Shown piece by piece: positions 1 through 19,500 of a stretch of DNA of 64,000 nt. Origin of the DNA: Moniliella sp. 'wahieum' (taxonomy: Eukaryota). The stretch covers positions 372,001 through 436,000 of the forward strand of contig RSEE01000023.1 of NCBI GenBank assembly GCA_003971905.1. Direction: 5' to 3'. The notes beneath the pieces are model-generated. The model saw only the letters and a list, made by a program, of their open reading frames with translations. It ran no database searches and was not told where the DNA came from. Each line of letters starts with the position of its first letter. The stretch's first letter is position 1. The translations under genes and the position numbers were made by a program.

Positions 1-982
1 GCTCGGGCCTCTGGTCAGTGGGGCAATCTCCGTAACAGGCACCAGTTGGAGGTGGTCATTCTGGGTGGCGACGATGTTCAGTGGGAGTATGGGTGTTATC
101 GCCGTCTTCTGTGTGAGAGAGACGTATGCTCCCATTCTATTAGTTCAGAAGGCGAAACGGTTACGAAAAGAGTCGCAAACAACAGTAAGATATGTAGCAC
201 CAATGGAGCTGGTGCCACTCAAACCCAGGGAATTGTTGAGCAAGACGCTTCTCAAGCCTTTTATCATGTTGGTCCAAGAGCCTATGCTAGTTGGCTGCAC
301 ATTTTGTTGAGCTATGCTTTTGGTCTCCTCTACCTCATCTTTGAGTTTTATTCGTCGTACCGGGAAATTTACGGGCTAAACCCATTACAAGAGGCGCTAT
401 GCTTTCTTCCTTATCTGGTCGGATCCCCCTCTCCTGCGTCGCATTCTACACGATCGTCGCGCGGTACCAACGCGATCTGGATGCCGCCAAGGCCAAGGAC
501 CCAGACGCCAAGCTTCCTCCCGAAAAGCGATTACCCATCGTACTCGTATGTGGGCCATGCATGGCTATAAGTTTCTTTTGGTTCGGCTGGGCCAGTTACA
601 AAAAAGCGTACGGCCCTCTCCCCCCACTCTTTCTCTTCAGAACAAAAGTCTAACCAATGGACTGCTGTACAGGACGTTATGGGCGCCACTATTTAGTGGA
701 CTGCCACTCGGGTTTGGCATTGCAAGTGTCTTTCTGGGCACCATGAACTATCTTGTGGAAACCTACCGTTCCCACAGTGCGATCGCTCTTGCGGCCCAAA
801 CCACGGTTCGGTGTTTGGTAGGCGGCGGGTTCATTCTGTTTGCAAACCAAATGAAGGCGCGCTTGGGAGTTCATTGGGCGTCCTCCCTGTTGGGCTTTTT
901 GGCACTGCTTCTAACCCCCATTCCGTTTGTTTTGTGGTTGTATGGAGCCAAGCTCCGGTCTTGGTCCAGATTTGCCTTCTAA
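1..982 (+). CDS. MFS transporter, DHA1 drug:H+ antiporter family, 3' part (5' end outside the window; introns and indels)
   Basis: Fragments with DHA1 motifs: RETYAPILL..KAKRLRKE, LLKPFIMLVQEPML, PPEKRLP..FFWFGWAS, NYLVETY..SAIALAAQTTVRC, LGVHWASSLLGFLALLLTPIPFVLWLYGAKLRSWSRFA*; intron GTACGG..CTAAC..CAG at ~608-671. Confidence 0.9.
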
Positions 983-1556
983 CCTTGCGACCACTCACGC
1001 CCCTGGCCCGCATATTACCCTGCTTTTGGGATTCTATATACCCTGTCGTATTCACCAAATATATGGCAGGAGCTGCCGCTGTCATATTGAGCGGTTTCTT
1101 TATCTCTAATACTCTATCGGAAGAGACAATATATCAACCCACTGCATTGGAAAACAGGGAACCTACCCCCCAAGGGAAAGATGGGCCAAAACCCTCTGGC
1201 GCGCCTGGGGGAAGAAATTTTCGGGGTGAGGGAGGCGGGGAGTGCGCGTAGCACAGCCTCAGACAGGCTCCCCGACCAGTCTTCGCCTCTGAGAGACCTG
1301 AGATGTGAGAATCGCACCGTCGTTGACTCTTTTATTATTGTGGCCATCTTCATGTTTTCGTGTATCGGTGCCACCACTCTGATGCTCGGGTTTTTGTACT
1401 CTAAGTTCTTCATAAGGGGTTTCTACTCAGTACGTACTTTCATTCTCGCCTGTAAGCTTCTGTGTATCGGAGTGGATCTGAGGTCTGTGCCGATAAACTA
1501 GTACTACACAACTATGAGCTCCTGCTGTAGCCCATATCACATCCGATCAGTATGTC

Positions 1557-2001
1557 CTAGTGGCGTGACGCGTGACGTCTGATGAAGCAAGTTGCATGTG
1601 ATGCACATGATGGAACCCGTCCATGTGCAGGACCATCGATCATCGACCCGTCCTCAGGACTGAGTGTACTCAGGGTACTAGCTGTACTCCAGCTGAGGCC
1701 CTGAGGCCTGAGGCTCAGCCGGAGCAGAGATCTCAGACTGAGAGCTACCAGCTGTTGCTCCGGCGTGGCAACCATGTGATGTTGTGATATACCGATGATA
1801 TGATGGGTGCGGTATATGTGACACTACGCCATGCGTCTTGCACTTGTGTGACAAAAGCGAATGTGGTTAGTGGGGCCTGGGGGGCACAGATAACATACGG
1901 CACACCCGCCGACGAGAGACGAGGCGGAGCACAAGGGGCAACAGGCATAGCATGTAACATGGTAACATGGGGCAAGAGCACTGTTACCATGTAAGGCCTA
2001 A
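1557..2001. repeat. Cluster of TNA-[4-bp palindrome]-TNA heptamer units
   Basis: TGA.CGCG.TGA 1566-1575; TGA.GGCC.TGA 1702-1711; CATG.TAA.CATG ~1951-1961; TAA.GGCC.TAA 1992-2001. Confidence 0.75.
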
Positions 2002-2569
2002 GGACTCTATACTATTGGTCTACTAACACATTCTATAGCAGCAGAGATCCTTCAGAGAAATAAATGAGAAGACATATCCGGGTTGGAGCCCAGAGGTTGG
2101 AAATATTGGACCAAGCTGCACGCGTTGAACATGTTGAATGAACTGAGGATCTGAGCGCCATATATCGATCAACCCGCCAAAAACATTGCCCAAAAACGCT
2201 CTGATCAGCAGCGCTCTCTGAGGATCGATGACCGACCTGAAGCCAATACAACCGGTGTGACTGGTGACTGGCGAACAGAGAGTGTCGTCAGCGCGCCAGG
2301 AGCAGCGGCCCCAGCACTCCCAGTGGTGTCGGATCGCTTACGACTATTAAAGTACGCGGTTTTATATATTAAGAGGGTTAGTGCTTAGTACGCGTTAATA
2401 CCCATCACCTTTCCAAGGCTGTTGCAGCCATAATGCATTGCATGTAACATGTACCAGGCGATTGCGGCGCTCGCATCAGAGCTCGCATCCTCCGCTGAAA
2501 ATCGAAGTGTTCATCGCGTTCAGCAAACCCGCAGCGAGTTCATGAAGATCAACAACACATCTCCATCAT

Positions 2570-4990
2570 CGCGTCTAACGCGTTAAAAAGATGTGTTCAA
2601 ACGTGGTTGGGTACGCGTTTAGAATACCCGACCCACGTTCAAGATTTCAAACGTTCCCTCCGATTTCTGTCCGAGCTCTGAGAACCCCGATTTCAGAGTC
2701 AAGCTTGAACGTTTTAAAAGTTTACTGTTTACGCGTTACGTTTACCGATTAACGTTTAACTTTTCCGTTTAACCCGTGTGGCGCGCGCCATATATGCATC
2801 TGCCGAGCAATATCCCGCAGTGGCGGGTGGCGCATGGGGAAGAGTGGCGGGGGAGATCGGGGAACGAGACAAAGAGTGGAAACACCTATTTGGTTCTGGG
2901 CGCATCAACGCATCACCGTCACAGGCGTCACTCACGTCACTGGCACGCCGAACATCAGCATCAAAAGTGTTTGACAACAAGTTGGCGTATCTGTAGCGCT
3001 GTGCTTGATATTAGGCTCAGTACACTCCATCTGAGATCTGATGGGTCTGATGGTGCTGACGCGCCTGACGCGCGCTGCGTCCCAGCTGACCCAACAGCCG
3101 ACGTCAGCGTCAGAGGCTCTTGTATTAACCTGGTCCTGCTGGCTTGCCCAGTTGCTCTCGCTCGTGCACCCTGGATGGGATGGGATCGGGGCGAGGCAAT
3201 TCAAAGGCTTTGCAATGGCTCCAAGCCGAGCAGGCCGGCGCTATATCCAGTTGCATTGTTATGCATGTTACGTTCACGTTCAATGTTCATGGTAATAATG
3301 ACGGTGACATTGTGACATAGGGCAGGACGTGTCACTTTCACTACATCACTGCACTGGCCACAACAGTGAAGCTAGTGACTAGTGAAGCTTGAAGCTTGAA
3401 GTAAGAATGGCGAACAATAACTTGTTCCTTGCCTGGTGGCGGTCCCAACAGCACGCGGGTTAGCCGGTCAAGGCCGGCCGGTCAAGCTTCAAGCTGGACA
3501 AGCTTCAAGCTTCAAGCTCTTCAAGCTGCAAGGCCCAAGGCACACCACCATACGAAAAGCAGAGGGTAAAACATGCAATACACAGTCTGTGAATATGAGC
3601 TTTTCCAACAAAAGCAGTAATTATCAGTTGCTCAGATTCAGCATTACCTATGACTCAGTTTCTCTCATATACGCTCTCGGTACACCCACACAACCATGCA
3701 GCAACAGTCCTTCGTCAGCAGGCCGGCTGAGCGCGCGCGCGCGCTGAACGACTGAGCCGCTGAGTGCTGGAGGCCTGAAGCAAGTTGGGGCATGAAGATG
3801 GCGGGGCAAGATGACCGGGGGATATGCAAGTGGCATTAAATATTGAACGCTGAAGCTTGCAGCTTGAAGCTCGAGACGTTGTTGAAGAACGACTGTCAAG
3901 CGCAGGCCTTTTATAGACCAGCTTCAGATTCAGTCAGACGTTCAGTTCTTCTCACACGTTACGCGTTACCGCGGCCTTACTGGGTTACACGTTACGCGTT
4001 ACGTACGACACCATAGGCATAATACGATGCCGCTTGCAATTTGGGATGGGATTGAATGGGGCGGGGAGGCAGTGTGCGGGCCCATTCGGAAGGGGCGACA
4101 ACAGGGGGCAAGTGTTGTCCCCCTGAGTATGTGGGCCGGTTAGGCACGGCTGGTGTGGTGGGAGGATGGTGGTCTGTGCGATGGGGGGCCGTGCGTGGGG
4201 GCCCCCATGACTCGGATCGCTGGTGGAGACAGAGGTGAAACTGACGCCGTGCGGCTGTGGGGGGCACATGATCCCGATGTGGCCTGCTGTGGCTTTGGCG
4301 TTGGAACGGAATGGGTGAGGGGTAGGCCGTAGGGCAGCGAAGGGACTGCCATAGGGACTTGCGAAGCTAATGATGATAGGAATAGTGAGTAAGTTGCAGG
4401 TGCCATGCACCATGTGACATGTGACATGTAGCACATGTGGCATGTGGTTGTGAGTACGTGGGTATGAGAGTACGAATACTGGGTACTGCGTCCAGTACTG
4501 AGCTACTCAGACTGACTTCTCAGAGATCTCGGATCTCGATCTCATTACTGAGTCTCAGTACCGTGTGAGTTGTGAGTACAGTTCGGTGTTCAGCGGTTCA
4601 GCGCGTTGAACACGTTGAACGTTTAGTACGTTGTTAATCGATAATCGATAATCGAATAATCGTTGACCGAACCGTTGCGTACGAGTACACTGGGTACGTT
4701 AGGCAGACTGGCTAGAGTGGGGGTGTGACATGTGACAACAGCGCCCAGTGCACTCGGTGGTCGTAGGGCTTGCGTGAGTGTGTGAGTGTGAGCGGCGCAT
4801 GTGCCGGTTGTTGGCATGGCCGCCGTTTCGGAGCTCCTTTACTCGATCACTAGTCACTAGGTCACTAGGAATACTGAGGTCTGAGGCTCAGACCACCGGT
4901 CACCGGTCAGCCGGTCAGGCCTGAGCCTCAGGGCCCAGGCCACAGTGCCTCAGTGCCTCAGTGAACGTTCAGGCGTGCAGGCCTGAGACC
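2570..4990. repeat. Long region with many TNA-palindrome heptamer clusters, upstream of the C2H2 TF
   Basis: TAA.CGCG.TTA 2576; TCA.AGCT.TGA.ACGT 2699-2712; TGA.GATC.TGA 3032; CTAG.TGA.CTAG.TGA.AGCT.TGA.AGCT.TGA 3372-3399; CATG.TGA.CATG.TGA.CATG 4411-4428; (TAA.TCGA)x3 4635-4655; TCA.CTAG.TCA.CTAG 4847-4860; CCGG.TCA.GGCC.TGA 4911-4924. Confidence 0.85.
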
Positions 4991-5181
4991 ATGGTAGCTA
5001 GGAAAGCCTCGTCGAAAACAAAGCCAAGCGAAACAGCGCCGAGTGGCGGTGTCCGCCGGGAAGATGACTAGCGCTGGTCCGTGGCCGCCCGGCAAATGCC
5101 TACGCCCTCCGGCATCGCCCATTCTCCCATCGCATCAACGTTCAACAACACACCTAGCTTGTGACGCTCGAACCCAGCTGC

Positions 5182-6287
5182 ATGTCCTCTGTCGGTGCCC
5201 TGCTCGCCTCCCCGCCGCCACCTGCTGCCATGTTCGAACGCCCCTCATTGGCTCCCCCACGGCCCGGCCTCGGTGCACTGTCCACCCCTTCCGAATCCAG
5301 CCGCACCCCCAGTGCCAGTACCAGCACCAGTAGCAACACCAGCACCGCCGCCACTACACCCTCGACACGCGCCAACGCCAATCCCAGTGCCAACGCCGGG
5401 GCCATCGCTTGCAACAGCCCTTCCGATTTCCCTCCTCCCCATCTCCGAGCACCCTTTCCGGCTCGTAACCCCGACCCAACTCTGCCTCCACCTCCGCTGC
5501 CGCCCCATGACACGCCTACTTCTGGGTCGCGATGGATCCATCCCTTGCAATGCAGGGACACACAGAAGAGATGTTCATTGCATATGCCAGTCTATCCACC
5601 TCCCCACCGACCACGCCTAAGCAACCCGGCCCAATATTCGCTCACTTCACCTCCGCCACGTTGGCACCCGTTACCCCCCCCATCAAAAAGGTTGGCGTGA
5701 CCATTGCGATTCACCTGGGCGCCAATGGGAGTCCTTACCGCGCTTGCCGCCCCTTCGCCATGCCCACCATCTTGCTCTCCCACAGGAGAGGGAAGGCGGA
5801 CGACCGCGGCCTACTGGCTTGCCCATCGGCTTCGACCACCCGCGCCCGGACCCGTCCCCTCCTCTTGCTCATCCTCGTTGTCAACCCTACCCTCCATCAC
5901 CCAGTTCCAGTTATCCCCCACAGCGCGAGGGAAAGCGTCCACGTTTCACCTCCGACTCGGAACCAAGCCCTTGGGACACACAGGATCCCCCGCCCCCTCG
6001 TCACAGGAGCCAGCATTTGCACCTACCACCACCCATTGACCGATGCTTACTGTGGCACCCACTTCAATCGTCTTTACGATCTCTCCCGTCACCGCCAGAT
6101 CCATGCGCGCGAAGAAGGCCGAGCGATCGCGGCCGGTTTGTTGAGGCGCGATCAAGCCTTGGTGTGGGGTAAAGAAGTCGACCCTACTTCCTCTGGTGTG
6201 ACCAAGGAATGGTGCTGTCAAGAATGTCAATCGGTGTTCTCCCGAAAAGATGCACTGCTCCGCCACAAACGGCTTCGGGCCCATTGA
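5182..6287 (+). CDS. C2H2 zinc-finger transcription factor (Pro/Ser-rich N-terminus, two C-terminal fingers; indels)
   Basis: CTY..CGTHFNRLYDLSRHRQIH and CQECQSVFSRKDALLRHKRLRAH* in ORF 5532-6287; probable ATG at 5182 in the overlapping frame. Confidence 0.8.
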
Positions 6288-7300
6288 ATACAAATCCCCC
6301 TTCTCTCTCTCTTCCCCTTCCCTTTTGCCCCCTTCTCCTGCTGCTTTGCCCAGCACGGGGCCCGCTCAGCTGCCCTATATCAGCTGCCCAGCAACTTGCA
6401 TGCATCTGGTATTATGCATCATGTGCGTATAGTATGGTCTTTCGCAGCCCCCCGCGTCAGTTAGTTTTTTGTCTGGCTCATATACCTACGGCCTCAGCCC
6501 GCACTCTTCGTTGCTGTACAGCAAAGCTTTGGAGATTTCGTCTGTGACAGGCTAATCCTCGCTGAAGAATTGAACGAGAGAAAGCGTGTGCTGGAGTTTT
6601 TGTACGGAACAGTATCTTTCTCCCATCAATATCATCAATCTGGCTACCGTTGCGACCATATCAAAGTAGAGTCCATTAGCATGGCAGTGGATCTATACTT
6701 TTCTACACCACTGACCATCGATATGAGAGCTGGTCAGCCTCCTGTGTGCTTGTTGTTTCCTGTTTCCGGGACATGCATGTTCGCCACAGCTCGTTCAAAA
6801 CGACAAGCACGCCGGACATGTGAGCTCCAGCAGGGTACGCAGAATAACGAGGACAAAACCTTTTGATATGTGGTCAAAGATGAAGCTACTAACTGGTACT
6901 ACATGAATGCAGCGTTGAAGGATGCGTGCGGGGTTGATGCGCGCTGATGGCCCTGAATTAGATGCAATGGCTCTGCAACTCAATACCTGGCAACGACACT
7001 ATGGTGATGTAGACGGGGTGAGTTACGACTAGTTCTCCGGCACCGACACGGGGAGGGGAAAAGGCGAGAAAGAAATAAGGTGAATAAACATACTCTGTTG
7101 GTGGCTGGTGTAGCCCCGCTCTGCTATCGACTAGATACCCCTGTTAAAGCTGTGCCCACAACAATGCATCGTACGTCGTCAGTTACGGCCGCCGACCATC
7201 GTGGCAGATTCAGTGGTATAGCATCCATTTGTTATGACAACCAGGGAATCTAGAATCTTGCGCGTAGCGGTGGTAATGTTCTCTGGACTCAAGATACTGC

Positions 7301-8641
7301 TCAAAAGCCCAGGTTGATCGATCCTACCCCAGCCGACAGCTCCGCATCAGCGGGGAGATATCTACCTTCGGGCGAGTTGAGTGGGTGTGAGGTAAAGAAG
7401 ACAGAGCCCGTATAGCTCTCACCTGGCACAACGCGCTGGTGGTCCAACGCCCAGTCGCGCTCGCCCCGATGCCTCCACGAAAGGTTCACCGAGCCCGTCT
7501 TGGCTGCTGCCTTGACCAGCCCGGCGAACGACTCGTTGTACGTCACATTCACTGAGCCCACATCGGATTGGATCTTGGATGTCCAAACCTGTGCCAAGGT
7601 GCCAGTGGGGTCCTGATTTTCGCACCCAAACTTGTCTTTGAACGTAACCTGAACTTGTCCGGTATGCGCAACCGCACCCACCCGCACTGCTGCCCCCTTC
7701 TCGGCCGAGAAGGTCACGGGCGTTACATGGCCAAGTATGACCGAACCCTTGTCCGTCTCGACGAAGAGATCCTGGGCCACGACTTGTCCGTGCACCTCGA
7801 TCGTTCCCAGGTTGGATGTGAGCTTGGCAATGGGCGCATACCGAGGCGAGACGAATGCTGCCTTTGTCGGACGACACCTGAGCCGAGGAAATGGCATGCA
7901 CAGCGTTTCCGTTGATTGACCCCAGTTTGGACTCAATCACCATATCCTGTGCGTAGAGGGCTTGCTTGAACAAGACCGAGCCCGTCTCGGCCACGATACG
8001 CGTATATGCAGCAGTAGGATTGACACCCGTGAAAGTAACGCTACCGATCGTTGCATGAACCTGGACCACGTCTGCAGTAACCCCCAGATCGGCCGAGGAG
8101 ACCGAGCCTTCATCTGAAAGGATATCGAGGGTGCCTAGCGCCCCCTCGGCACGGGGGAGACGCGCCTTGACCGTAACTGCGATCTTGGGCTTGAGCGCAG
8201 GGAAAGGAGTATGCGGGTCCGAGTAAACCCCAATCCTAATCCAACCATCTTGGGTTTGCAGCTGCACCACCCGCAGCTCCTCCTCCAGCGTCGCCTCCTT
8301 ATCCGCCCACGCTTCAACATCTACAAAGGTCTTACCGGACCAGCCAGTTCCGGGTCCCGTTCCGACCAAGTCAATGTTCGTTGTGTGTCGCTTGCCAAGA
8401 GAATGGATCGACAGCCCATTGCTCGTCTTGGCGGAGGGGAGCAGCTCAAACGTGGCCCTCCGCACAAAGGGTCGGCGGGGCCAGAAGCCCTTGCGCTCAA
8501 TAGGGCCCCAGGAGGCTTCGGAAACGAGAATGCCCTCGGACGCAGGTACGTCGGGTCCCTTGTCAGCGGCGCCTTGTTGTCGAAATTGAGCATGATGTGT
8601 GCAGAGTGTGATGGTGGGAGGGATGGTGGTGACGAGCCCAT
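7301..8641 (-). CDS. Beta-strand repeat protein, DUF4097/putative adhesin (toast-rack)-like; frameshifted
   Basis: Repeated x-x-x-G-[ST]-[VI] units across ORFs 7419-8702 and 7301-7936 (SDEGSV, ATIGSV, AETGSV, SKLGSI, SDKGSI, SNLGTI, TDKGSV, SDVGSV, AKTGSV, AGVGSI); start uncertain. Confidence 0.6.
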
Positions 8642-9375
8642 GCCGGTTAAATGTGGATCGTTGCCACCAGGCAGGCACCCAAGCCGAGGACCTCAGAAAC
8701 ACGTCGAAGCGGGAACGTGCGACTCGCAGTCAAATATCAGCCTGCGCGTCACGTGGCGCGTCAATATCAATAGGAGCCAGCCGGCTGGCCTCAGGGGTTC
8801 ACTCTTTCATTATTTCAACGGGGCCATCTGTGCGCTCAGCTGAGCCGCTGAGCGCTATTAAACACAGCTGACTGATGCAATTGGTTGGGAGCTGCGCGAC
8901 TCCCCGATATACCACCCACAGGGACCCCCACGCCGCTGAGCGGCGGCTGAGGCGCTGGCTTGCCTCAAGACGGCTCGTACAAGTCACCCGAGTGGAACGC
9001 GGCGCAGCAGGCGAAGCTGAGGGCGCTGCAGCGGTAGCTGCTTTCTCGGTGAGGGAGAGCATAACGGCGCCATTGACTGGCAGCGTATGTGGGAACACCA
9101 GACTGAAGTATGCTCTCAGACCGAGAAGTACTTGCTTGAAGCTTGACCTACCCTCAGAGAAACTACATAACGTGAGGTGTGAGGTGTGCCGTATGGATGG
9201 CGATGACGCGATGACGCCAAATCGTCGGGCGGCATCCCCGGACTATACCCAAACGTGTTTAATCCTCATGTTCTCGATGAGGGCAACGGATCTGCAGGAG
9301 AATCAAAAGGGCGAGATACGCTCAAAGGTGAAGGTAAAGGTGTACTACATTTGATGAGATTACCCTTAGGTATTC

Positions 9376-9471
9376 GGTCGATTAGCTCAGTTGGTCAGAG
9401 CGTGGTACTAATACGTCCAACTTGGAGTGTTGGTGATGCCAAGGTCATGAGTTCAAGCCTCATATTGACCA
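9376..9471 (+). tRNA. tRNA-Ile(AAT) with 22-nt intron (9414-9435)
   Basis: Acceptor GGTCGAT/ATTGACC+A; D-arm GCTC..GAGC; anticodon stem TGGTA/TGCCA with loop CT-AAT-A[intron]A; T-arm ATGAG-TTCAAGC-CTCAT. Confidence 0.95.
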
Positions 9472-9472
9472 C

Positions 9473-9478
9473 TTTTTT
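9473..9478 (+). terminator. RNA polymerase III terminator (T6)
   Basis: TTTTTT two bases after the tRNA discriminator. Confidence 0.85.
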
Positions 9479-9690
9479 ACATTGGGTACGCTTGATCTGA
9501 AGAAGGCGCCAGCCCTCCGAGTTTCGCTCCCGCTCAGTCATATGGCCATGGTGCATGTGTCTTGCGCATCGCCATATGCATAACCGGTAACCATCGTCTC
9601 ACAAGTGTTCGTCATCGATCATCCGCCATTAGGCCTTAGGCTACAAATAACTGCTCGCGCCTTTGCGTCCACCTGCACCTCAGTCTTTCA

Positions 9691-12600
9691 ATGAGTGTTT
9701 CTGCCAGCATGCTCCCGGTGCCGCTTCTAATGGCGGCTTACATGCGGGATTAGGTAAGCCTAGCCAGGAGGCAGCGGATGGTGTTGCACCGAATGTGATG
9801 TCATCCCAGGCGCCGCAGCGCCGCAGCGCCTCACCAGCCTCACCCCCCCTTGCAGCTGAGCATCTTCCCATTGTGCGGGCGCCAACTTCCCCTCCATCGC
9901 CATGGGTGCATCCGAGCCGTGCTGGACCTGCAGTCGATCCAGTCGCACTCGCCTGAATGGACGCCCGAGCTGCGCTTTGCCGTGTGCCTGGCCACCGCCC
10001 ATGCTGCCCGTGCGTGCTACCACCGCGTAGAGGCCCATGTCGACGCCCTGGAGGACGCACAAGCCTCTGCCCTCCCCGTACCGGGCACAGCGCGGTCCGA
10101 GTACAACCCGCACCATGCCGATGACGAGGCTACACTCGGGATCAAGACGGAACACTTTGAGGAGGAGGGGGAGGATACACGTGATGCTTCCCCTCACCAG
10201 CGCATGATCATGGAACGTGTCCGCCTTCGCCGCCGACACGAGTTTCTTCAAGACTGGGACGAGTTTAGTACCAAGTTCCTCCAAGCTACATGCCAGCACT
10301 TGGGAGTCCCGGTCCATGCCCTTCCTCCCGCTGATGACATGACGGAGGATGAAGTTTTCCGCATTATTCGCGGCGCAGCGCCCGACCCAACCCCGGCATC
10401 TCCGGCGACAACCCTTGTTCCACAGGAGGAGCCCGCTCCTGTAGATGAATCCAACGGCCAGTCTACCGAGTCGAACGACGAGGCAACAGAGGATCCTCCA
10501 TTGGAAAAGATGGAAGACCTGTCATTGGACAATGATGAAGACTCGCTCCAGGAAGCCCCCCGAGCCCATGGACCAGCCCAGCAAGGCATTTAGCGTACCC
10601 CTGGGCCGTCCAGGTCGCCCCCCCCTTCCACCCCCCAAATTCCCATCGAGAACGACACCAAGACCTCTTTTGTACAGGCTGGGCAGGAGGTGGAAATCGT
10701 GCATGAACTCGTGCTTATCGCCCTGGGACTGGGACAGTACCGTGCTTCGGATGGAGCGACAACACTGTTTGAGCAAGATGAACTGTTTCAGGACGAGAAC
10801 AAGGTTGAGGTGCGGGACATGTCCGCATCGCAGACTGCACCCGAGGTGCCACGCCATGCCCGTGGATCCTCTGTGGAGGAAGAAAGCAAGGCCGTGGCGG
10901 AGGTGGCTGCGTTGGAGCCACAGGCCGAGGAGATGCCTTCTTCGGACCTCACTACCCCTGCGGACACTCAAGTCGAAGAGGCCTCGGTCCAGCAGACCGA
11001 ATCGCCCCCTCTTCCCCTGCCCGTCCTTCCGATTTGACTTCGCCCGAATCTGCCCCGACGGAAGAGGGAAACTTCCTCAGTATGCCTCCACTTCCGCCCA
11101 GGACCCCATCTCCCCTGGCCCCCCACACCGATGTGCAAGAAAAGGCGAAGCCCACCCCGCCTCCTCTGCCTCGCGCTTACCTCCTCGGCCATCCGTGCAC
11201 CCGCCTGTGTCTGAGCCCGAGACAGGCGGGAGCTCAGGATGGAAGACGCCCAAGACTCTATTTCTTCGCTCAAATGGGGAAGGGGAGGGAAGAAGGATGC
11301 TACGCCAGAACCAGAAAAGTCCGAGACCCACCCCGCTCCGTCCGAGAAGAGGAGCCGCCATGTCCGAAGCTCAAGGAGCCTGTCAAGCCCAATGAGCTGT
11401 TTCATTACGATGCTCGCTCTCGTGCCATCATCTTCCAGGTGCTGCGGGCTATGGGGTTGGAGAGCGTGTACCTGTACCAGGGGGAAAAAGTGCTGGCTCA
11501 GTCCATCTACTTTTTGGTGCAAGAGTGCCAACGCGCGGAAAACCAGGGTGAGCCCGTGTCGGAGGAGACAAGAGGGGCATGGATGAATGAAGCGAGCACG
11601 AAAGTGCTTGCTCGTGAGCGTAGCAAGGGCAATTGGGGTGGGGAAGTGGGCCGCAGCTGGGGTGGGATTTGCCTGGCGGGTGTGCTAACAGGCGGGCTCG
11701 CAGCCCCGCTCTTGGCCCCGATGATGGTTGGTATGGGTGCCGGTTACCTTGCTACAACAGGTGGCGTGGTTCTCATGGGTACCCTTCTGGGTTTAGGGGG
11801 CGGGGGATTGGCTGGGTACCGTGTGGAACGCCGGCTCAGGGGGTTGGACCGGCTGAAGTTTGACGTGGTTCCGACCCCGGCTGCTGATGCAGGGCTGACG
11901 ATTCCCAGCATGCATGCCACGATCTGTGTGTCGGGACTGCTGACCCAACCGGGGCAACAGACGGACCCATGGAAGCAGGCACTGGCATTCGCCATCCCGA
12001 TCCAAGGGACATTTACGCCGTCGAGTTCGAAACGGACCTGATGGTAGAAGCTGGGACAGGGCTGCAGCGTTACGTGACCAGCCAGCTGATCCGCACCGGT
12101 GGAACGCACGTGGCCACGGAGGTGATCAAGACAACCGCTTTGGCCGGCTTGACAGCCTTGACACTGCCTTTGACCGTTATGAGTGTGGCATCGGCCGCGT
12201 TAGACTCAACATTTGTGCGTGCCAAAACCAAAGCGCATAAGGCCGGCTTGGTTCTAGCTGAGACGCTACGGAACGAGGTGCAGGGGCACCGTCCTGTGGT
12301 CTTGATTGGTGTCTTGGGCGTCACTACGGTCCTATCGGCCCTGGTAGAGCTGGCCAAGAACCCAGGTGCTTCCGCCCAGTTGATCGACTCGGTCTTTCTC
12401 ATCTCGGGGCCTACGGTTCCGAGCACGCGTACGATCAAAAAGGCACGCTCGGTCGTCGCGGCGCTTTGTCAACGCCTACAGCAGCAAGGACATGGTCTGT
12501 GGTGTTGCCGCCTGGCTGGGGTCAGGAAACAACATTGAGGACCTGCGTAACGGCAAGCTGCCGCGCGTCATGGGCTCAGGACCCGTCGACTTGGGCCCCG

Positions 12601-12713
12601 AGGGCGACGTGGAAAATGTGGACGTGTCGGAAGTGGTCTCAAGCCATGAGCAACTGAACCACGAGGGCCATCTAGCGGCGGTGTTGGCGCGGTGCAATGC
12701 GTTTGTAGGGTAG
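9691..12713 (+). CDS. DUF726 (TMCO4-like) alpha/beta-hydrolase-fold membrane protein with long acidic/Pro-rich N-terminal region; intron and indels
   Basis: YDARSR, GVLTGGLAAPLLAP, GGGLAGYRVERRLRG, AKTKAHKAGLVLAETL..QGHRPVVLIG, VENVDVSEVVSSH; probable short intron GTAAGC..CAG at ~9754-9808. Confidence 0.85.
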
Positions 12714-12970
12714 GCCCTTTGTTACCTACAATGATTTTGCGTTCATCCATTGTCCTGAAGGAGGGGGGGGGGGGGCGTCACGCGCGACCTACTCAGTAGC
12801 CATATGCAGATCGACGTTACAAGGGCGACACAACGAGAAAATAAGATAAAAGAAGACTCAGAAAATAGCCAGGGATAGGGTATCCAGGTAATCGAAAGCG
12901 CACACGGCAGAATAAGGAAAGTGCAGCTAGCCACAGGTGTCCTTACGAACGACCAATCTTGGCTGCCGTA

Positions 12971-14612
12971 TTAGTACGGGCGGTACTGATATACTGGCTC
13001 GCCGTAGCCTTGCTGACCGTACCCATGACTGCCATATGGCTGTCCGCCTGGAGGCAAGCCAGGCGCGCCAGGCATTTGTTGTTGGTAAGAGCCAAATTGG
13101 GCGTGGGGGGGGCGTAATTGGCTCGGGGAGGCGGATATTCGGGGGTGAATGTTGGGGCCAATTTGAGGTCGGAGCCTGCGTCTTGCAGGGGGCGTACCTA
13201 GCGCTCCCGCCGAACGACCAGGTGTGGCAAACCCAGCTGCGGTGCCTCCCACAGCTGCGCTGGTTGGCAATGCACCGTGTATCTCCTTCTTCCCCCGCCA
13301 ATAGTACCGGCAACAACACACAATCGCCGTCCATACCACGATCACACTCCCCACCACAATCGCCACAATGATCCCAATCTTGATCTTGGTTGATTTCGAC
13401 ATGGGCTTCTTGGCCTGCTTACCCATCGCCTCGTTCCGGACCGAGTCAGGAAGCTGATCCCCACTCCATCCCAACTATTGGAGTTTTTGACCTGGCGGTT
13501 GGTTGAGTCAGCATAGCCCGGCATGCCGGAGGCGCCGCCGTAGTCCATATTCGCTATGCGGGTCAGGGGAGCGGTGCTGGTACTAAAGCCTGGGTGGATC
13601 GACGAGCGTCGCCCGAGTAATTCTTGCCCGAGTAGACCCAGCTCGTCACAGTATTGTTCGACTGGCGGCGGGTGGGCGAAGAGGCCGCATGGTTGCACTG
13701 CACAGTATAGTTCAGCAACTCATGAGCGTAGTATCCTTGCTTGGTGTACTCAGGGGTGGTCCAATCGATCACACCGCCAGCCCAGGCTTGTACTCCCTCG
13801 GCTCAGTGACGTTGCCTCCTGCCCACAATGAAAATTGGACGCGGGAGGGCGATTGCGGGTACCAGCCCTTGCAATCAGAGGCCTTGAGCGTGCGGACCAC
13901 TTTGCCATCAATCAGCCATTGCAGCTGTTCTGGTTGCCAGTTCAATCCATACACGTGTATGTCGTCCACACTCCAATGGCCAGTCTGATTGAGCGTCTCG
14001 GGTTGGCGATTGGATTGCATGCCAAATGTGTTGGTCTGCGTGTTAGTCGGATCTGCAGTGGTAAATTCCCAATCAATCTCGTCGCCCACGTCGGACATGG
14101 TGATGAAGCTGGCTACCACGCCAGCGCGGGCCTCGTGACGAAGAGCAGCCTCAATTGTGCCGTAAAGAATGTAGTTGGTACTGGAAATCTTGCCTTGGGA
14201 TCCCTGGGTCATTTCCAGCAGCACTCCGTCTTGCCCCTTGCCAAGAAAGCCATTGTCGAGCGTAAAGCAGAGTTGGCGGTGCCATTGTAGGAGAGGATGG
14301 GCATGAAGTAGTCAGTGTTGTTATAGTCGGTCGGCTTGAAGCTGATGCTCATGTCCTTGCACACGGGCATGGGTGCACAGCTGTCGGGTGCATGAGACGA
14401 CAGAGGATTGCATCCGTTCGCACAGTACATGGCGCCCTTGCCGCAGGTGCCGCCCATGCAGCATGGCGTGCTGGAGGGCACTGGTTGCTGGCACTGCAAC
14501 TTGTCTGGGCTGCAGCGGGTGCGGGTGCGGCGACGACGGCGAGCCACGCAAGCGCAGCGAGCACGGCCGTGGAGGCGGCTGGTCGGCGCAGAGGGGAGCG
14601 GAGGACACGCAT
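12971..14612 (-). CDS. GH16 Crh/Utr2-type chitin-glucan transglycosylase with signal peptide, Cys-rich chitin-binding N-domain and C-terminal TM helix
   Basis: Signal AVLAALAWLAVVAAPAPAAA; C..C.SSTPCCMGGTCG.GAMYCANGCNPLSS; catalytic GDEIDWE; PQSPSRVQFSLWAGG; TM IGIIVAIVVGSVIVVWTAIV. Confidence 0.9.
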
Positions 14613-15755
14613 CGGATGCCCCGGCGAAGGAAGGATTGGAGAAGGTGGTGTGGAGGAGAGAGGCTGGGGCTGCCGTGTGGTGCTGCGTCGCTGCTCCACT
14701 CTGCTCCGCCTGGCCTGCCGCCGTGCTTCGCTGGCAGCAGCTACTAGGACTGCTGCCGCTGCCCTGCCTCCGCACCGCGCCTGGCCGCTGCTGGGCGCGC
14801 ACGGCATGCGAGGCTTGGCGCCAGTCTGCTGCATCCCCCCTCACTGCCGCCCCGTGCCCCCGCCCGGCACAGCAGGGGGGCACACTCCCAGGCCATGCCA
14901 TGCAGCTTCCCTCGCCCCGCGAGGCACGCTGACGTAACTTCTGGTTTTGTGTCTCTGCCCATCGTTTTTGTAGCTACGGCCGGCTCCGTGACTACCGTTG
15001 TGGCCAGCCAGTACTACAGTGGCATATCGGCATCGAAAAGAAGAAATTGATCTCCTCTGGATCTGATTCTTAGAAATTGATGCCTGTGCCCCTCCCGCCG
15101 GATTCTACCAAGGCAGCCCTGGCCCGGTTGTGTCTGCTGTGTGGGCAACCGAACACAGAGACTCTGCTGTCGCAATCGCGCTGATCACAAAAAAGTCTCG
15201 TCTCTCTGGCGGAGGGCAGGATGAAGCACTGCTCAGCCTTATCCGGGCGAACAACTTCACGCCAGGATGGTGCAAGCAAAAACATGCTCACAAGTTCGTC
15301 ATGTGAGCAGTTTTTCTCTTATTTTTGGCATACCAAAGATATCGACACATAGATCAGCTCGGGGGGAGGACTCAGTAGTGGTGGAACGTCTGTTGTCGTC
15401 GTCAGTATCAAAACGTTTCCATCGATCGGCGATAGTATACCTTCCTCTGCCTCGGCCCCAAGCGCTGCCCTCTGTCTCCCAATCGTCTTGATCACTGCTG
15501 TCTGCCGCCTACCTTTTTTATTGTTATACCTCTCAAAGAAGAAAGAATCGAGACTAACGAACGAGACACACCCACACACCCTATATTCCCTCCCCCATTT
15601 TGAGCATATCTGCGCATTACACGCTTGTCCGCAAGAACAACGGTCGTGATTAATACACAAGTCGCGGCTGTTCTCTTCATCATGTGGAAAAGCAATTTAA
15701 TCCCTCAAATTGGCAGGCATATAATACACATCTCACCTGCATCATACCTCATTGT

Positions 15756-16457
15756 GCCAAGGCCTCTGTAAAAAGGGAAATGGCGAGATAATCGTATTGC
15801 CGATAATCGATAACCGGCCGGTAACCACCGATCATTGATAACAAGCATCGTCGATACTCAGTAACTCAGTACTCAATAGCTATATCTAGCCTCTTATAGC
15901 ATAGCATAGCAAAGCCAGTATATTTGACTGTGACATGTGTCGCACGAAATAAGAGAAAGAATGCCAAGACGATGTCATGCAAATGAGGCAGAGGGGCGGT
16001 GTGTACATAACCGGTGCCAATCACTTTGGGCTGGGCAAGTATAGTTCCTGGCAGGCGCAGGACCAGTCTCGAACACTGATTCGGGGAATTAATCGCACAC
16101 CGCCCCCGTGGCTGCGCGGCCTTAATGCATTGCGAGCCCGCTGGGCGCGAGCATCTCAGCACACTGGCCAGATGCAGTGGCAGGGGTTCACACTGTCACG
16201 CATGTCACATGTCACAGCATTCAGCCAAGACGTGTGGTTCATGTTGTTCCCGCAAGTGCGGGGTTGAGAATAGTGCGACAAGAATAGGCTCTTGGCGTGT
16301 CTGGGACCAGCATATGTCAACACCCTTGATAGGATATCCCGCTTCGGTGATCCGCGGAGAAGTGTTAACGCCAAGCCTGTGTCTCCCGGAATTCGGCACT
16401 CGTCGAGGATGTGGACCATCGCGTCGCCTCGACCGTGAGCATACGACAGGATATAAA
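15756..16457 (+). promoter_or_regulatory. ENA ATPase promoter: cluster of PacC/Rim101 GCCARG sites plus TATA box
   Basis: GCCAAG at 15756, 15963, 16224, 16370; reverse-strand sites at 16291 (CTTGGC) and 16047 (CCTGGC); TATAAA 16452-16457. Confidence 0.7.
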
Positions 16458-16541
16458 GGCCCTTGCTTCTCTCTGCAATTCTCACCTGCAATCCCCATCT
16501 CGCATGCAGCAACTTGTGCTCGTTAGCTCATTTTGCCCAGT

Positions 16542-19500
16542 ATGTCCGACGAAAGCAAGATCCAACTCGCGGTTGAACCCACTCTGTCGCCCACCAACTT
16601 GGACGAGCCGGTCACGCTTGAGTATGCCCAACAATTTTCCTACACACGCCCAGCGATCACCATCCTGCGTGCGCTCAATGTTGACCCTGACTCGGGACTC
16701 CACGAGGACGAGGTGGTCAAACGCCAGGAAACGTATGGCCCCAACGAACTGGCGGATGAGTCGGGTGTCTCTTACCTCCAAATTTCTTGCGTCAAGTACT
16801 TAACGCTATGACTCTGGTGTTCACGCCCACCCCCCAAAAGCATCCCTTTGGAGATTCTAACTGTTTTTTTTCTTTTGTTCTCTTCCCACAGGTCCTCCTT
16901 ATTGCCTTCATTGTCTCGATGTCCATCAAGAGCTGGATTGAAGGTGGCGTAATTGGCATCGTTCTAGGACTCAACATTGCGATTGGCTTCTTCCAAGAAA
17001 GTGCCGCGGAGAAGACGATGGCATCTCTACGAGCCCTCGCCTCTCCCACTGCCCATGTGATTCGTGCTGGCGAGCTAGTGACCATTCCCAGCTCCGAACT
17101 CGTTCCGGGAGATTTGGTGGAGCTGTCAACGGGAGACCAAGTTCCTGCGGACCTACGTCTGATCGAAGCCAGCAACTTGGAGACGGACGAGGCCTTGTTA
17201 ACGGGAGAAGCCATGCCAGTAACCAAAATTCCGCAACAAGTGCTGTACGACCCCGACACGGCGGCAGGTGACCGGATCAACTTGGCGTACATGTCGAGTA
17301 CGGTAACCAAAGGCCGAGGACAGGTGTTGTGGTGACGACGGGCATGAACACGGAAATCGGACTGTTGGCCGGCGCTGCAAGGTCCGTCCAAGCGTCAAAA
17401 CTGCGGAGATCAAGGAGGCTACGTACGGGAAAAAGGTACAAACTGCAGCCCGTGTAGGTGCTGGTGCAATGTGGGACAAGACGGCTGCCTTTCTTGGCTT
17501 GACGGTTGGTACCCCCCTCCAGCGCAAACTTCTGTCCTGGCATTGCTTCTCTTTTTGATAGCGGTCGTCTTTGCTATCATCTGCTTTGCTGCCAACAACT
17601 GGACGGACAACGAAGTGATTCTCTATGCCGTCGCTACAGGGGTGGCAATGATTCCTCCTCTTCCCGCTGTGTTGGCCATCACCATGGCCAAGGGTGCTCA
17701 GGCCATGACATCGCGAGGCGTGATTGTGCGCAAGGCGTCCGCCATCGAGGCGTTGGGCGCAGTCACCGACATTTGCTCTGACAAGACTGGAACGTTGACT
17801 CAAGGCAGGATGATTGTCAAGCAGGTCTGGCTCCCAGGCGAGGGAGTTATCAGTGTGACGGGATCGGAAGATGTGTTTAACCCAAACAGTGGGCACGTTT
17901 CCAAGCACTGCGACGTCCAACCGAAAGACATGTCCCCCAATGACCGCCAACGGCACGAACCCATGCTCCTTGGTCCTGAGTTTCGTACGGCCAACCAGAC
18001 CAAGAAACTCTGACCGATTTTCTCAATGTGTGCGTCTCCTTTCTTCCGTACATTATGCTTGTTGCTCTCTGTTTTCAAAAAATACTGACACTATCCCCCC
18101 TTATACTCGCCTCTGACAGCGTATCTCTTTGCAACAATGCCAAAGTTCTCAAGGAAAAGAAGCAAACAAGTGGGTGGCACACGGCGACTTTACCGAGTGT
18201 GCGCTCCAAACATTTGCCCACCGCTTTGGCTGGGGCCGACCCTCTGACCCAGGCCGCCAACCAAACAGTCGGACGCCGAAAGTTACCTCAAGGACCAAGC
18301 CGAATGGGAACTGGTTCATGAGAACGGCTTTTCTTCGGATGTGAAACGCATGTCGGTCGTGTTCCACCACACACCTTCGGGTCGTGGATGGGTAATGATG
18401 AAGGGGGCCGTGGAACGGGTGGTGGAGGGGTGCACCACATCTCTGGTCCTAACGGTATGGTGGCGCTGGACGAGACGATCCGTGCCGATATTATGGCTAA
18501 TGTCGAGGTGTTAGCGTCCCAAGGCTTGCGTGTGTTGGCGCACGCCAGCCGATCCGTCTCGGAAGAAGAGCCATGACGGGGTCGAATTCAGAGGGGGCCG
18601 AAGCGTGGCAGCGCCTTGATCGGGCCGAGGTGGAGAGAAACATGACGTTTGTTGGATTGGCAGGCATCTACGACCCTCCTCGACCCTCGTCGGCGCCGGC
18701 GATTGCCACGTGCCACGGAGCCGGGATTGAGGTGCACATGCTTACGGGCGATCATCTTGGTACGGCACGGGCCATTGCGCAAGAAATTGGCATCCTGCCC
18801 TCCAAGGAAGTGATGGCAACCTGGGCGGAGGATCGGCGGCGCGCGATGGTCCTTACCGGTCCTCAAGTGGACAAGATGACGGAAAGGAACTGGATCGCTT
18901 GCCCGCACTGCCACTTGTTGTCGCCCGTTGCTCCCCCCAGACCAAGGTGCGCATGATCGAGGCTCTTCACCGCCGCCGCGAGCGGTGTGTGGTCATGACG
19001 GGCGACGGCGTGAACGATGCACCCAGTCTCAAAATCGCCGACATTGGGATCGGTATGGGATCGGGGTCGGACGTGGCGATTGGAGTGGCCGACTTGGTCT
19101 TGTCTGATGATAACTTTGCCTCGATCGTTGCCGGCATTGAAGAAGGCCGTCGTACGTTTGACAACATCAAGAAGTTTGTCCTTCACTTGCTCGCTCAAAA
19201 CGTGGCCCAAGCTATGACGCTTCTCATTGCGCTCGCCTTCAAGGACAGGACAACATTTCCGTCTTCCCCTCGCGCCCGTTGAGATTCTGTGGGTGATTAT
19301 GGTCGCCTCAGGATTGCCCGCCATGGCACTTGGGTTTGAACCGGCTGCCGAGGATGTCATGCAGCGCCCCCACACAGTATCAAGACGGGCGTGTTCACCC
19401 TGGAGGTGGTGCTGGACCTACTGGTGTACGGGGTGTGGGTGGGAGTGTTGCCTGTCGACATTTTCGATTAGTGTTGGGGCTTTGGTCCTGGCACGCTGGG

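Follow-up and report, generated by a model that had tools for sequence, protein, structure and literature searches.

The intergenic DNA at this locus contains short arrays in which four-nucleotide palindromes alternate with TNA trinucleotides in a 7-bp register, and the palindrome can change from one unit to the next while the register is kept. How do different palindromic cores come to stand side by side? The window analyzed here is the whole stretch of 64,000 nucleotides at C23:372001-436000, within an assembly of 69.5 Mb and 223 contigs. An earlier note had quoted seven strings with exchanged cores, and all seven were recovered, position by position, in a check of the window sequence. The in-register arrays are real; however, a complete triplet of the form TNA-palindrome-TNA-palindrome-TNA is present in only one of the seven strings (3376-3399), and one core in each of the other six lacks an in-register closing TNA.

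In the window, 86 of 185 TNA-N4-TNA cores were palindromic against a background of 6.2%, and the control frame CNG-N4-CNG gave 24 of 404. A sample of 464 kb showed the same pattern, with 632 palindromic cores among 1405 compared with 59 in block shuffles; 538 of them had the same centre base in both TNA trinucleotides, and 42 had it flipped. The enrichment was restricted to TNA and to a spacer of four. Mixed-core triplets numbered 27 in the 464 kb, compared with zero or one in five shuffles. Half of this sample had been picked partly near matches to AGCT arrays; the half with fixed coordinates contained 184 units in 200 kb (~0.9 per kb) and nine mixed triplets, and the whole assembly would hold roughly 60,000 units if this density is typical. 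Mixed neighbors did not exceed the expectation from local palindrome density, the control named in the earlier note, but fell below it: 41 were observed versus 105.5 ± 7.8 when cores were permuted within 2-kb blocks, whereas identical neighbors numbered 162 versus 31 in the same permutation.

The results showed that insertions of 7 nt with a stereotyped form occur at TNA sites in non-coding DNA, by which ab-TNA-cd becomes either ab-TNA-cdd'c'-TNA-cd or ab-TNA-b'a'ab-TNA-cd. The right flank thus templates the core cdd'c', and the left flank templates the core b'a'ab, so that one insertion of each kind at one site yields two different cores. The outer flanks should then repeat half of each core, and the blocks should stand in a fixed order. 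Among the 41 mixed triplets in 664 kb, the rule was obeyed on the left in 35, on the right in 25, and on at least one side in 39, compared with 1/41 and 2/41 in a swapped control. Runs of three palindromic cores were of the types AAA (46), AAB (12), and ABB (6), with no ABA and no ABC, and isolated same-centre units matched one flank only in 154 of 244 cases, both flanks in 52, and neither in 38. Repeated insertions therefore yield no more than two blocks, the first derived from the left flank and the second from the right, and what had been described as a core swap is the border between the two. The pattern is real and genome-wide, and we are nearly certain that mixed cores mark the places where independent insertions, each templated by a flank, adjoin. 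The proposal that one palindromic core is converted into another by two to four compensating changes did not hold, as distinct cores form whole, in one step, from two flanks. Ten cores appeared to be half-way between two palindromes; four of them equal cd+ab, which is a plain 7-bp duplication, and three more differ from it by one mismatch.

The complete triplet belongs to a mixed array (3365..3401) on the target AG-TGA-AG, in which both outer flanks follow the rule. It comprises one 9-nt unit (the 7-bp duplication plus CT), one left-templated CTAG unit, and two right-templated AGCT units; the order in which these would have arisen is a reconstruction from the sequence. An array on the target GG-TCA-AG (3466..3532) has left-templated CCGG and right-templated AGCT units, partly decayed, with a period of 7 reported by TRF at 3482-3532 of the window and no in-register TNA before the quoted CCGG. 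On the target GA-TCA-CT (4843..4869), left-templated TCGA and right-templated CTAG are followed by 8-nt units, as seen in the sequence and by TRF. The array on GG-TCA-GG (4896..4924) consists of left-templated CCGG units, one of them 8 nt long (G+CCGG), and right-templated GGCC, and that on GA-TAA-CC (15802..15826) of left-templated TCGA and a doubled right-templated CCGG. Two strings fit poorly. In the TCA-AGCT-TGA string (2699..2712), the centre base is flipped and the second core has no closing TNA. The weakest quoted example is a decayed AGCT array with a TGA-AG half-site (3837..3871), whose TAA-ATAT and ACGC units fit poorly and whose quoted string includes the non-palindromic core ACGC and the non-TNA joint TGC. 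The intergenic stretch at 1000..5150, upstream of a C2H2 zinc-finger gene (5532-6287), contains 273 TNA sites, which carry 21 palindromic units of the same-centre type.

Single events were examined in 103 kb of aligned haplotype-like DNA. Clean indels of 7 nt (49) were more frequent than those of 6 nt (24) or 8 nt (14). The rule at TNA was followed by 18 of the 49, of which 14 were not plain duplications, and the remaining 31 did not fit it; the same rule at ANT, CNG, and GNC fitted 0, 0, and 1 of the 7-nt indels, respectively. The earlier note had suggested that alignment of orthologous intergenic regions between strains would catch single steps; in haplotype-like contigs, three mixed arrays equal their partner plus one 7-nt unit: TTA-TGCA-TTA-TCGA-TCA versus TTA-TCGA-TCA, TGA-CTAG-TGA-ATAT-TGA-AT versus TGA-CTAG-TGA-AT, and TGA-CATG-TGA-TGCA-TGA-TG versus TGA-CATG-TGA-TG. 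The polarity of the events was obtained from 30 of the 40 listed copies of one LTR. Of seven private insertions of at least 4 nt, five follow the rule, four being 7 nt long and one 14 nt; a script recognized three of these, and inspection by eye the other two. The same copies carry 316 private substitutions and one private 7-nt deletion, which is of a different kind. The private insertions show that the events are insertions. In a second LTR, one copy alone has an ACGT + CCGG array, and the other aligned copies lack a TNA there (by eye). The rate in LTRs corresponds to about half a substitution per TNA site (six events in ~1,020 site-copies versus the 316 private substitutions), which is a rough estimate because private substitutions may include errors. 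In the LTR copies L104, L107, and L011, insertions lie at TNA sites that were themselves created by private substitution (by eye), indicating that a target is hit within a short time of its formation.

Two explanations that need no such insertion mechanism can be weighed against these data. If the palindromes formed a 7-bp lattice under selection, for example protein-binding sites, with cores that interconvert by compensating substitutions, units would be expected only in non-coding DNA, as found (none on 450 TNA in gene blocks versus 51 on 666 intergenic TNA); arrays are also present upstream of a distant homeologous gene. However, 7-nt insertions are frameshifts, which explains their absence from genes, and the fate of aligned motifs speaks against selection. 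Of 173 aligned motifs, 98 near gaps were excluded and 75 were scored; 57 were unchanged, 17 had changed to a non-palindrome, and only one had changed to another palindrome (CGCG/TGCA), by two CpG-type transitions. Substituted positions made up 20 of 300 in cores and 326 of 6210 in flanks (Fisher p = 0.29), and the aligned cores thus decay neutrally. In addition, outer flanks predict the cores, new units arise inside LTRs, and mixed neighbors lie below local expectation, so that the selected lattice is very improbable and already largely refuted. The view that a rule, and not a sequence, is maintained stands in part: the rule does operate, but it governs the formation of cores and not their upkeep, since substitutions accumulate in cores as fast as in flanks. 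In an assembly this rich in indels (720 of 1 nt in the 103 kb), ordinary slippage, chance, or assembly error could be suspected, and plain duplication could account for 388 of 706 palindromic units; the other 318 are not plain duplications, and the enrichment is specific to TNA and to spacer 4. Simulated slippage gave almost no mixed triplets, with a mixed-to-identical ratio of at most 0.02, and one scar followed by slippage gave 0.015-0.04, whereas repeated scarring gave 0.18-0.31 and the observed ratio was 41/162 = 0.25. The earlier statement that slippage of a single unit is insufficient for mixed arrays was therefore confirmed, and we give this explanation next to no chance.

The flank-templated insertions have a defined joint geometry. 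The two main joints were counted 428 and 426 times compared with ~1.5 in shuffles and had no counterpart at ANT, CNG, or GNC. In 8-nt units, the extra base equals that of the opposite overhang in 14/23 and 14/17 cases for the two joints (chance 1/4), and in 9-nt units the extra bases match the opposite overhang in 17/43 and 19/46 (chance 1/16). The 7-, 8-, and 9-nt shapes are those expected if both ends carry the full 7-mer and flush hairpins are opened two bases from the tip. Both duplicated targets and flank-templated P bases are present at the joint, a feature of hairpin-type footprints of the RAG/Transib/MULE type.

A mobile element with the corresponding target was found on the same contig. 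A 4968-bp element (C23:154552-159519) has long TIRs and a perfect GATCATG duplication; its TIR has 13 genome matches, and 15 ends were obtained by BLAST. Of these ends, 14 adjoin nnTNAnn, compared with a TNA frequency of 3.8%, and five of six two-ended copies have a perfect 7-bp duplication, the ends of the C11 copy not matching. A 378-bp copy lies inside an LTR at the C20 site, and two element-free copies of that LTR have the 7-mer once, with the caveat that 10 nt are missing to the left of the 7-mer in C20; another copy of this LTR has a scar at the neighboring TGA. Across five 4.9-kb copies, 26 substitution and 89 indel columns compared with 3772 invariant ones point to recent movement. Pieces of a CMC transposase are collinear in all five (profile positions 477-800, best iE 6e-8), with CxxC, MH, H(3)H, and the last E in order. 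These results showed that the genome contains a young TIR family that bears EnSpm/CMC-like transposase pieces and whose insertion duplicates exactly 7 bp around a central TNA. No intact transposase was found: each of the five copies has interrupted reading frames, and none showed the first catalytic D. Introns, shared decay, and assembly errors are indistinguishable as causes of these interruptions. The first Atlas match for a transposase piece was a DUF4218 cluster (0.95, recognition below threshold), a 215-aa piece had no Pfam match, and no longer homologue of either piece was found. The TIR pattern had no match in metagenome contigs and occurred at chance level in the window. All 15 ends start with CTCACTG, in which CACTG is offset by two bases. 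Subterminal tandem repeats are typical of EnSpm/CACTA elements, and 10-11-nt repeats lie inside both TIRs. To judge from sequence, the family would work like a CMC element yet departs from EnSpm/CACTA elements in its termini and its duplication length. As side observations, three copies share one 7-mer target, and the duplication equals the usual 3 bp plus two bases per side, which hints that the cuts have moved outward by 2 nt.

The most likely reading of the scars, and one that we regard as probable, is that they were left by the excision of elements of a CMC-like lineage whose target is 7 bp long. An element of the CT-CACTG TIR family or its relatives would land at a TNA-centred 7-bp target and later be cut out, and each flank would then be sealed into a flush hairpin. 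Host opening of the hairpin two bases 3' of the tip would leave the overhangs cdd'c' and b'a'ab, each of 4 nt, of which end joining would usually retain one and lose the other. The scar would carry two fresh TNA targets, so that insertion could be repeated, and slippage may then extend identical blocks. Artemis is described as opening hairpins mainly at +2 (PMC2175297), and MULE, hAT, Transib, and RAG are reported to form hairpins on the flanks (PMC5499845); by analogy, we infer that hairpins in the fungus are opened at the position used by Artemis and that hairpin chemistry may extend to CMC transposases. No excision event was caught, and no empty element site with a scar was seen. A solo TIR at C23:153503 comes after a TGA-TCGA-TGA scar, and in its C8 homologue (C8:478694) the TIR is separated from the target by two additional bases. 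The flank of the C23 element (C23:154538-154551) resembles an older 9-nt scar of the same target with one mismatch. A far-reaching version, which we hold to be rather doubtful, is that a CMC-clade transposase shifted its cuts two bases outward, giving CT-CACTG ends and a 3+2+2 = 7-bp target; that it or a domesticated offshoot is the genome-wide writer; that the TNA scars are self-renewing at near the point-mutation rate, mostly with no elements left; and that they are the main source of intergenic tandem repeats.

The same one-step insertions could also be made without a resident element, by a TNA-specific nuclease (a domesticated or abortive transposase) or by a template switch of fixed geometry that duplicates the site and adds two fold-back bases. 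In favor of such a source, scars exceed element ends by thousands to one, no intact transposase was found, and the rough LTR rate points the same way. The flank preference also differs: half-sites of the family are weak-strong in 15 of 18 (by eye), whereas scars are weak-strong in 83 of 209 copied arms and 51 of 209 other arms against a background of 29%. This weaker preference indicates that the CT-CACTG TIR family alone is not the maker of the scars; some must stem from different or older families or from an enzyme that acts without an element. On the other hand, the genome does contain a recently mobile family whose duplication is exactly as predicted, 7 bp long and centred on TNA, the 8- and 9-nt variants need two ends each carrying the 7-mer, and switching driven by microhomology should not spare ANT, CNG, and GNC. 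We therefore consider an element-free origin of the scars unlikely and keep to excision by a CMC-like lineage.

Other candidate sources were also considered. Scans for TIRs plus duplications in 0.8-0.9 Mb and the haplotype insertion junctions revealed no other element with a 7-bp duplication. PF18759, PF05699, PF18758, and PF10551 had no genome match, with controls silent for three of them, including PF05699 and PF18758. An origin from hAT or hAT7 was rejected because the element pieces are CMC-like and the palindromes are even (cd|d'c'), not centred on the border base, and one from Kyakuja (KDZ) because the elements have long TIRs. A Tnp2 fossil (PF02992) at C17:556098-558800 (L052) and on C62 lies in the same place in both haplotypes, shows the even codon-position substitutions of neutral decay, and has no convincing TIRs. 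A PF02992 element at C34:511854-516747 (L057/L058) has CAC..GTG ends and a 3-bp duplication; neither it nor the Tnp2 fossil was accepted as the source. This CACTA-like element is single, has long open frames, and lies 6.5 kb from an element with the 7-bp duplication.

Several known systems resemble the scars in part. P nucleotides of V(D)J recombination, formed by RAG and Artemis:DNA-PKcs, share the even palindrome, the two added bases, and the +2 opening to a 4-nt 3' overhang, as described in PMC2175297; here, in contrast, a transposon target is duplicated, one product dominates, the spread is non-coding, arrays come from repeat events, and the enzyme is putative. Ac/Ds (hAT) footprints likewise combine target duplication with a palindromic insertion after flank hairpins and end joining, with short P arms in a fungus, but Ac palindromes are described as odd and centred on the complement of the border base (PMC5873905), whereas those here are even and the candidate transposase resembles CMC enzymes and not those of hAT elements. 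EnSpm/CACTA and fungal CMC elements (CNIRT6, CNEST, and rust EnSpm; PMC12730594, PMC12810828) have CACTG TIRs, subterminal repeats, C(2)C, H(3-4)H, and a final E in common with our family; they are reported with CAC..GTG ends and 2-3 bp duplications (PMC12730594, PMC12810828, PMC4455052), unlike the CT-CACTG ends and TNA-centred 7 bp found here. Among basidiomycetes, 7-bp duplications are described for hAT7 (rusts) and Kyakuja, which have other transposases; Kyakuja has CA..TG ends without TIRs, and the passages concerned mention no TNA-centred target (PMC12730594). The numerous small intergenic "10-bp repeats" of the smut U. maydis have been suggested to be transposable-element footprints, and TNA-N4-TNA also spans 10 bp; this comparison is by description, as the passage in PMC4081816 gives no sequence, and PMC4824034 has no passage on these repeats. 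Apart from them, the pattern was not described in the literature searched, which lay outside supplements and the primary U. maydis papers.

The best match of a kinase fragment was to Tilletiaria anomala (64% identity), indicating that the host is a smut-related basidiomycete. Haplotype-like pairs with 87-94% identity (C82:168-259 kb with C105:80-180 kb, C17 with C62, and C8 with C23) and a distant homeolog of the window (C2:366-398 kb, 75-80% in genes and unalignable between them) suggest a hybrid or polyploid history of the genome; no close haplotype of window positions 1-19400 was found in the assembly. Within the window, a DUF4097-like gene (7226-8851) has 90% copies on C82 and C105 in a different neighborhood and is without a match in the homeologous part of C2, the pattern that a recent move or copying event would leave. 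A tRNA-like sequence of ~103 nt (9376-9478) has more than 30 similar copies in the genome. The DUF726 gene (9950-12700) and other genes contain many frameshifts, consistent with an unpolished long-read assembly.

These results show that tandem repeats can arise without slippage, and they reveal one genome marked by tens of thousands of stereotyped mutational events. Rule-like palindromic lattices upstream of genes are accordingly not necessarily binding sites. If the CMC link is true, the scars would be a natural record of excision in the CACTA clade, by flush flank hairpins as in RAG, and would document a lineage that targets 7 bp centred on TNA.
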